DNA from: an uncultured Bdellovibrionales bacterium
GTDB taxonomy: Bacteria; Patescibacteriota; Minisyncoccia; Moranbacterales; GWC2-37-73
DNA length: 55,242 nt
Direction: 5' to 3'
Assembly: GCA_964609855.1 (NCBI GenBank)
Contig: CAZSTB010000008.1
Span: 1-55,242, forward strand
Below, one piece after another: positions 51,238 to 51,333 of this stretch. A program made the position numbers and the translations under genes. Position 1 is the first letter of the stretch. The number at the start of each line of letters is the position of its first letter. A model generated the notes under the pieces. The model saw nothing but the letters and a program-made list of their open reading frames with translations. It did not search any database and was not told the DNA's origin.

Positions 51238-51333
51238 TGGAGGAAGCTCGAAGGATTGGCAGCAGTATAATCGAAAGCCTGGATTTACTACTCCAGTGTA
51301 CCACTACCACCAATTTTTACCTTCGAAGCTTCC
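51238..51333 (-). ncRNA. 96-nt long-hairpin RNA with an acceptor-like stem and U-CCA end
   Basis: GGAAGCT-T-CGAAGG/CCTTCG-AGCTTCC-T-CCA; inner 12-bp helix; CTGGA/TCCAG hairpin. Confidence 0.65.

Follow-up and report, generated by a model that had tools for sequence, protein, structure and literature searches.

On the minus strand, in a species-specific island of orphan genes, the window analysed here (the whole stretch of 55,242 nucleotides, which forms contig 8 of a CPR-type genome that spans 1.23 Mb and is 98.5% complete) carries a 96-nt rod-like element of tRNA ancestry that is absent from all relatives searched. Our best explanation, to which we give a probability of about 0.45, is that the rod is a young, non-decoding mimic of the acceptor/T-stem half of a tRNA, made and processed as an RNA; its transcription, its processing and any function are what we infer from the sequence features described below.

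The rod folds as a mismatch-free helix on the minus strand

The rod occupies positions 51238-51333 and reads 5' to 3' from 51333 to 51238 (GGAAGCUUCGAAGGUAAAAAUUGGUGGUAGUGGUACACUGGAGUAGUAAAUCCAGGCUUUCGAUUAUACUGCUGCCAAUCCUUCGAGCUUCCUCCA). RNAfold arranges it into 31 base pairs, 27 Watson-Crick and four G-U, with no mismatches. The two ends form a terminal 13-bp stack (51242-51333, minus strand) in which nt 1-7 pair with nt 86-92 (G1-U7 with A86-C92) and nt 9-14 pair with nt 80-85 (C9-G14 with C80-G85), with U8 bulged between them; the stack can be read as 7+6 or, with C9 bulged, as 8+5, and it is not closed by a T loop. A one-sided 5-nt bulge, UAAAA, separates the terminal stack from an inner helix of 13 bp (A20-G32 with U67-U79) that includes the four G-U pairs and has A20-U79 as its end pair. 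Next come an internal loop, with GUACA on its 5' side and the 11-nt sequence GCUUUCGAUUA on its 3' side (51268-51278, minus strand; it carries UUCGAUU and is unpaired in the minimum free energy (MFE) fold), and an apical hairpin with a 5-bp CUGGA/UCCAG stem and the 8-nt loop GUAGUAAA. The 3' terminus is an unpaired UCCA, composed of a discriminator U and a templated CCA at 51241-51238.

Much of this structure had been drawn in the initial annotation of the stretch, made by a model from the letters alone. RNAfold reproduces nearly exactly its 7 bp, bulged U, 6 bp and unpaired UCCA, and bears out its CTGGA/TCCAG hairpin. The A-rich loop that it placed before a GU-rich helix is indeed A-rich but is a one-sided bulge, not an internal loop, and the GU-rich helix is present with its four G-U pairs but measures 13 bp, not 12, A20-U79 being the additional pair. 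The 13-bp end, which it compared with the acceptor-plus-T length of tRNA, corresponds to an acceptor stem plus a “T-stem” whose T loop is missing.

The MFE of the rod is -42.0 kcal/mol, compared with -21.9 +/- 3.2 kcal/mol for 200 shuffled sequences, none of which equalled it (z = -6.29), and the MFE fold accounts for 15% of the ensemble. The plus strand of the same site reaches only -28.9 kcal/mol (z = -3.43), because the four G-U pairs turn into A-C there; every one of the four non-Watson-Crick pairs is G-U on the minus strand. On the assumption that the arms started out as a perfect repeat, and with transitions weighted 2:1, the chance that four substitutions would all preserve pairing is, by our own arithmetic, about 0.25^4, or 0.004.

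Sequence comparisons point to a class II tRNA ancestor

We compared the rod with the tRNA genes identified by ARAGORN in this genome, with shuffle tests carried out on the 34 genes located outside the window. The end of the rod has a 7-bp stem (GGAAGCU/AGCUUCC) followed by a discriminator U and a 3' CCA, and it is a near-copy of the acceptor of tRNA-Ser(UGA) (G000:C15:1078-1165): the rod has GGAAGC...GCUUCC-U-CCA and the tRNA has GGAAGCG...CGCUUCC-U-CCA, and the sole difference in the acceptor, U7-A86 for G7-C66, is compensated. The likeness continues through the 3' strand of the T stem to the last part of the T loop (AAUC-CUUCGAGCUUCCUCCA versus AAUCUCUUC--GCUUCCUCCA), and the score of the last 24 nt of the rod against the 3' end of tRNA-Ser(UGA) was equalled in 2 of 1000 shuffles. 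Farther in, nt 21-55 (51279-51313, minus strand) are collinear by local alignment with the D and anticodon arms of tRNA-Leu(CAA) (UGGUGGUAGUGGUA----CACUGGA...UCCAG in the rod versus UGGUGGAACUGGUAGACGCACUGGA...UCCAG), with an identical CUGGA/UCCAG stem and a score of 16 against a shuffle mean of 9.7, a score that 2 of 1000 shuffles equalled.

The Leu-like and Ser-like segments stand in tRNA order, and the 96 nt of the rod are close to the 88 nt of a class II tRNA with its CCA. A 13-nt insertion, UCGAAGGUAAAAA, that follows the acceptor 5' strand pairs with the old T-stem 3' strand, and ...UACUGCUGCC, found where a variable arm and the 5' strand of a T stem would be expected, is the partner of the old D-arm sequence; the non-tRNA parts of the rod are exactly the pairing partners of its tRNA-like parts. 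Two collinear segments therefore indicate descent from tRNA genes, and by this sequence evidence the rod is a tRNA derivative, specifically a remodelled class II (Ser/Leu-type) tRNA. The tRNA-like acceptor end proposed in the initial annotation is upheld by the tRNA-Ser(UGA) near-copy, with an interior that resembles tRNA-Leu(CAA).

The rod does not form a cloverleaf, because the T arm is missing: the Rfam tRNA model has no match at E<=10, there is no way to draw a T stem, the apical loop measures 8 nt, and ARAGORN finds nothing in the rod in its standard, low-threshold or intron modes. The T-loop-like TTCGATT of the initial annotation is present as UUCGAUU in the internal loop, but it has no T stem, and the similarity of segment 56-79 to real T arms is not significant in the shuffle test.

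Odd tRNA-like genes of the contig template their CCA

Among 328 control hairpins of comparable strength in this genome (all closed by a perfect 7-bp stem and with 0.40 kcal/mol per nt or more), NCCA follows five, which is approximately the chance rate. The CCA by itself would prove nothing for the rod, and the claim of tRNA-likeness rests on evidence beyond it; a CCA after a hairpin is not by itself unusual.

N73-CCA is templated in only three of 33 ordinary tRNA genes, those for Ser(UGA), Met (C23:15809-15883) and Leu(UAG), and it is templated in all three odd tRNA-like genes of the contig, namely the rod, the Glu-like tRNA described below and the gene at 22726-22650. The chance of three out of three is, again by our own arithmetic, C(6,3)/C(36,3) = 0.003, and it points to either a shared foreign origin of the odd genes or a need for a ready-made CCA. 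Extrapolating from established knowledge of RNase Z and the CCA-adding enzyme, an elbow-less rod may be a poor substrate for both, which could explain such a need. The rare discriminator U is common to tRNA-Ser(UGA), the same tRNA-Met, the rod and the odd Glu-like tRNA.

The gene at 22650-22726 (minus strand) is an aberrant tRNA: its anticodon loop, GUUCAUUU, measures 8 nt, its ACCA is templated, and its score with the Rfam tRNA model is only 31 bits. ARAGORN finds 36 tRNA genes in the genome, none of them for Gly or Phe. At 44745-44819 (minus strand) lies a GC-rich 75-nt hairpin, GCAAGCC...GGCUUGC followed by UCCA, that includes the perfect hairpin CCUGCCUACCGGUAGGCAGG. GC-rich hairpins of a similar kind (CCTGGATCC...GGGAATCCAGG; TTCCCG...CGGGAATCCA) recur on many small contigs (C10, C28, C32, C33, C34 and C37), and the set has the look of a family of dispersed repeats at which the assembly breaks.

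The rod lies in a candidate RNA unit within a species-specific island

In this compact genome, the rod is located in a 533-nt non-coding gap that contains no credible ORF and is flanked by an isochorismatase-like gene (51399-51908) and an orphan 163-aa ORF (50374-50865), all on the minus strand. It starts 65 nt past the stop codon of the isochorismatase-like gene, with no terminator between. A possible promoter, read from the sequence (51360-51388, minus strand), consists of TTGACC (51388-51383), 17 nt, and TGc-AAATAT (51365-51360), and would give a leader of ~20 nt before G1; a strict consensus scan did not call it, and its -10 element matches at only 3/6 positions.

Twenty nucleotides downstream of the rod is an odd tRNA (51137-51217, minus strand; identified by ARAGORN, 46 bits with the Rfam tRNA model) that has a UUC anticodon in a 7-nt loop, a 7-bp anticodon stem, G3-U70, a discriminator U and a templated UCCA. 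BLASTN detected no orthologue of this stretch in 33 family genomes. A normal tRNA-Glu(UUC) is also present in the genome (G000:C11:19860-19932). From the odd tRNA to the terminator runs a structured non-coding stretch (50978-51136, minus strand) without an Rfam match, in which the 11-mer UCGUCUAGCGG (about 51104-51094) is identical to the D arm of the genome's tRNA-His, and a strong intrinsic terminator with a 13-bp stem and a U run (50948-50977, minus strand) closes the RNA unit. The 441-nt unit folds at z = -7.26, with the rod remaining a separate domain inside it. The rod is not itself an intrinsic terminator: it is followed by AAAUUGAUUACG, without a direct U run, the terminator scan flagged its inner CUGGA hairpin by a loose rule only, and the true terminator is the one at 50977-50948.

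The rod is single-copy in its own genome. BLASTN against 33 family genomes recovered no homologue, the matches being chance ones in coding DNA, and searches with a covariance model built from the rod were empty for the order (319 genomes) and gave two weak matches for the class (401 genomes), both of them false positives within the GGYGTLDELFQ-encoding part of a LOG-family gene. Three public collections (genome, viral and metagenome), scanned with one loop-motif pattern, gave 0 matches. By exact-protein look-up of both flanking genes we identified two other public contigs with the locus; because these are 100% identical to ours, no covariation is measurable. The assemblies of SRR446576 and SRR446577 contain the locus. 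The initial annotation had counted lack of conservation against its own reading, and absence from all relatives searched is what we observe.

The surroundings of the rod are similarly restricted. The 163-aa neighbor has no relative among 5.8 billion proteins, and the neighboring ORFs gave nothing RNA-related or mobile in searches of Pfam, PHROGs, PADLOC and NCBIfam and are orphans. In two same-genus genomes, MltG is 88-93% identical and the DNA upstream of MltG is different; these genomes share with the locus only the C-terminal half of a 269-aa ORF, and the whole island of the rod is missing from them. By these comparisons, the RNA cluster sits in a species-specific island of orphan genes. 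In the same-genus locus L070 (G013:C6, 4947-10547), a repeat-rich surface-type protein of 1866 aa is encoded upstream of MltG where the island would be, and the region upstream of MltG is hypervariable within the genus.

A tRNA mimic or a relic of rearranged tRNA genes

We propose that a class II tRNA gave rise to the rod, which would be a genuine RNA gene of the minus strand or else a gene remnant of very recent origin. What it would have kept is the half of a tRNA that is recognized by the enzymes of processing and charging. This half comprises a seryl-type acceptor with all 7 bp intact (G1-C72, G2-C71, A3-U70), 6 further bp for which the 3' strand of the old T stem is used, a discriminator U and the templated CCA. 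Lost would be the T loop together with the D/T elbow (for the tRNA elbow, see PMC4810234), and the old D-arm sequence would now pair with a new complementary strand, resulting in a straight rod that cannot decode. The rod is probably cotranscribed with the odd tRNA, in a transcript that would start from the weak promoter (TTGACC with an extended -10) and stop at the 50977-50948 terminator, and the ends of the rod would be produced by an RNase P cut at G1 and by trimming of the 3' side back to the CCA. If functional, it would most likely act as a mimic of the tRNA top half, as a ligand, a decoy or possibly a chargeable substrate, and its partners would be proteins that read only the acceptor/T helix.

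Several features favor selection at the RNA level: the 31 mismatch-free pairs, the departures from Watson-Crick pairing that are all G-U, the compensated change, the templated CCA and the terminator. Against function stand the lack of conservation, the weak promoter, the orphan neighbors and a tRNA setting that produces scrap.

That setting is documented both in this genome and in genus g2. Isochorismatase-like homologues in the sister genus g2 (37-39% identity) also adjoin a tRNA-Glu(UUC), which is normal and has partial 3'-end copies nearby, either downstream or on both sides; loci with this tRNA and one or two partial 3' copies are L059 (G004:C23, 901-1230) and L060 (G005:C4, 815-1168), and the tRNA-bearing segment is inverted between two genus g2 species. 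The genome of the rod (G000) contains exact partial 3'-end copies of tRNA-Ile (39 nt) and of tRNA-Lys, -Glu and -Trp (17-19 nt), with copies at C7:14729-14767, C11:11686-11704 and 19651-19667, C25:123-139 and 5035-5051, and C24:2760-2776, and three inverted copies of the tRNA-Glu(CUC) T arm lie 200 bp apart at C19:118, 318 and 518. These copies look as though tRNA genes had repeatedly been sites of integration or rearrangement, and they indicate that tRNA pieces are being shuffled in this lineage. Because the genome is full of such tRNA-fragment scars, rearranged tRNA pieces need no function to exist.

Almost as likely as a mimic is a non-functional relic of a class II tRNA or of an element-borne copy, produced by a templated (quasi-palindrome or strand-switch) mutation or an inverted duplication at a tRNA integration or rearrangement hot spot; the hairpin would be too young to have decayed, and it may be transcribed by read-through and do nothing. 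The initial annotation had allowed for a decayed tRNA, and a decayed or rearranged tRNA stays a live explanation. The common 3'-end fragment copies in the genome speak for this history, as do the duplicated 3' fragments and the inverted segment at the genus g2 tRNA-Glu(UUC) beside the isochorismatase homologue, the tRNA D-arm fragment in the stretch downstream of the odd tRNA, the location of a species-specific rod in a variable island of orphan ORFs, and the chance rate at which CCA follows hairpins. A relic, however, would have to keep nineteen new base pairs beyond the tRNA-like acceptor and anticodon stems, and against it also count the four departures that are all G-U on the transcribed strand with 0 mismatches, and the acceptor stem that is perfect and carries a compensated change relative to tRNA-Ser(UGA). 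In addition, tRNA-like sequence is found in different parts of both arms, so one simple inverted duplication does not explain the rod.

The rod could instead act as DNA, with its 96-bp imperfect palindrome serving as a recombination or attachment site or as a single-strand origin left behind by a mobile element, a possibility that we regard as improbable. Its position in an accessory island fits such a role, and the tRNA-end scars suggest that elements target tRNA genes in this genome. No integrase, transposase or Rep domain is encoded by the eight neighboring ORFs (49154-49963, 50084-54182), however, no att-type direct repeats of the rod or of the odd tRNA, and no flanking direct repeats of tRNA ends, occur within 15 kb, the rod is single-copy, and the G-U strand asymmetry favors an RNA.

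A cis-acting hairpin, which would either protect the 3' end of the isochorismatase-like mRNA or provide a maturation leader for the odd tRNA, also seems unlikely to us. The short distances on either side of the rod (65 nt from the upstream stop codon with no intervening terminator, and 20 nt to the tRNA) would suit both tasks, but neither requires a seryl-type acceptor, an exactly placed discriminator and CCA, or a tRNA-derived interior.

Known RNA families and the closest systems

The rod matches no Rfam family at gathering scores or at E<=10, including the Y RNA, SRP and 6S models with which the initial annotation had proposed to search it. A divergent Y RNA, 4.5S/SRP RNA, 6S RNA, tmRNA piece or tRNA-Sec/allo-tRNA is largely refuted and very improbable. 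In its favor are the rod shape, the length of ~100 nt, a 13-bp terminal stack of the same length as the 8/5 branch of bacterial tRNA-Sec, the near-match to a Ro-binding motif and the lack of an RF00169 match elsewhere in the genome.

The Y RNA lead came from the initial annotation, in which UUCGAAGG was said to be one base off GNCGAAN(0-1)G, the Ro-binding motif as given there. The sequence does differ from that motif at one base, having U where G is required, and the window does lack a Ro60/TROVE gene, as had been stated. The lead itself failed: PF05731 has 0 matches in the whole 98.5%-complete genome, with positive controls matched, and no Y family (YrlA/YrlB) reaches E<=10. Like the rod, YrlA is a ~100-nt RNA that joins a long end-formed stem with tRNA-like sequence, but its ends form the Ro-binding stem and its distal module has real D and T arms, whereas the ends of the rod form an acceptor stem.

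A tmRNA, or one piece of a two-piece tmRNA, was suggested by the G3-U70 of the neighboring tRNA and the pseudoknot-like RNA downstream; a canonical tmRNA is located at C13:2181-2592 (127.5 bits), and the rod has A3-U70 and no T arm. A tRNA-Sec relic was rejected on the basis that the model has no match at E<=10 and SelA (PF03841) is absent from the genome. The rod and E. coli selC have the GGAAG acceptor and the CUGGA/UCCAG stem in common, and the same stem occurs in the genome's own tRNA-Leu(CAA). An intron-bearing cloverleaf or an armless mitochondrial-type tRNA was likewise rejected, the intron, low-threshold and mitochondrial modes of ARAGORN returning nothing meaningful.

The rod also cannot be an SRP (4.5S) RNA, because it lacks domain IV and is absent from every relative searched, as an RNA as universal as that of SRP could not be; it has no SRP match, no AGG...AGCA motif and an 8-nt loop. 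RF00169 has no match in this genome at E<=1, and 13 of 14 control genomes do match; searching by the domain IV motif and by BLAST with E. coli 4.5S RNA yielded no SRP RNA either, the best match being in coding sequence. The SRP RNA of this genome is either unassembled or very divergent.

The acceptor/T helix with its CCA is the part of tRNA read by RNase P, the CCA-adding enzyme and several synthetases, and the hairpin substrates of RNase P include the 4.5S RNA precursor. Minihelices are either made in the laboratory or represent the T-loop-closed halves of real tRNAs. The rod has in common with them a continuous 12-13-bp helix of the 5' and 3' ends followed by discriminator and CCA; unlike them, it has a 5-nt bulge, a 13-bp helix and a hairpin at the place of the T loop, and it is a free-standing genomic unit.

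Two groups of natural RNAs also come close. tRNA-Other of Bacillus cereus is a pseudo-tRNA at a genomic island that can affect the cell wall (PMC3399842) and, like the rod, is a tRNA-derived gene beside accessory DNA and outside translation. It is still a cloverleaf, whereas the rod, known from sequence, has no D or T arm and no L shape. Long acceptor branches are found in tRNA-Sec (8/5, 13 bp) and in allo-tRNAs (8/4 and 9/3) (PMC5389517, PMC7609411). These share with the rod a seryl-type GGAAG... acceptor, class II ancestry and a 13-bp terminal stack, the one in the rod having no T loop to close it, and some allo-tRNAs have a hybrid identity, as does the neighbor of the rod with its G3-U70 and non-Ala anticodon. 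They keep the T arm, the D arm, the long variable arm and a 7-nt anticodon loop, however, none of which the rod has.

Possible roles and significance

A more specific but doubtful extension of the mimic, a long shot in our judgment, sees in the rod and its tRNA neighbor two matched, dedicated aminoacyl carriers or decoys that work outside the ribosome. The rod would contribute its seryl-type end, and the odd tRNA the alanine mark G3-U70 and an overlong anticodon stem; both would be charged through the acceptor helix alone, and their shape would bar them from the ribosome. Such a pair would feed or regulate an aminoacyl-tRNA-dependent enzyme, for example a FemAB-family transferase, or might instead soak up a toxin aimed at tRNA acceptor ends. 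The genome does encode a FemAB-family protein of 385 aa, the family of aminoacyl-tRNA-dependent transferases that add peptidoglycan branches (G000:C1:54345-55346, plus strand; 145.7 bits in all), and this gene has no physical link to the rod and the odd tRNA here. Enzymes of the MurM/MurN type usually add Ser and Ala as branch amino acids. If the carrier reading were true, the rod would be the first natural “armless rod” aminoacyl carrier in a bacterium.

The present weight of the rod is modest, because it is confined to one species and the RNA is predicted from sequence. If the rod is a relic, it would be a clean example of tRNA integration hot spots making structured RNAs from tRNA parts, and such structures would be raw material for new RNA genes. 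If the rod works, a bacterial tRNA gene would have been re-sculpted into a straight helix in which the acceptor/T-stem half with CCA alone is kept. That would make it a natural minihelix, a form that, to our knowledge, has so far been known mainly from test-tube work and from ideas about the origin of tRNA. The RNA biology of CPR bacteria is, as far as we know, almost unexplored, and a working rod would provide a handle on non-translational tRNA-like RNAs in these organisms.
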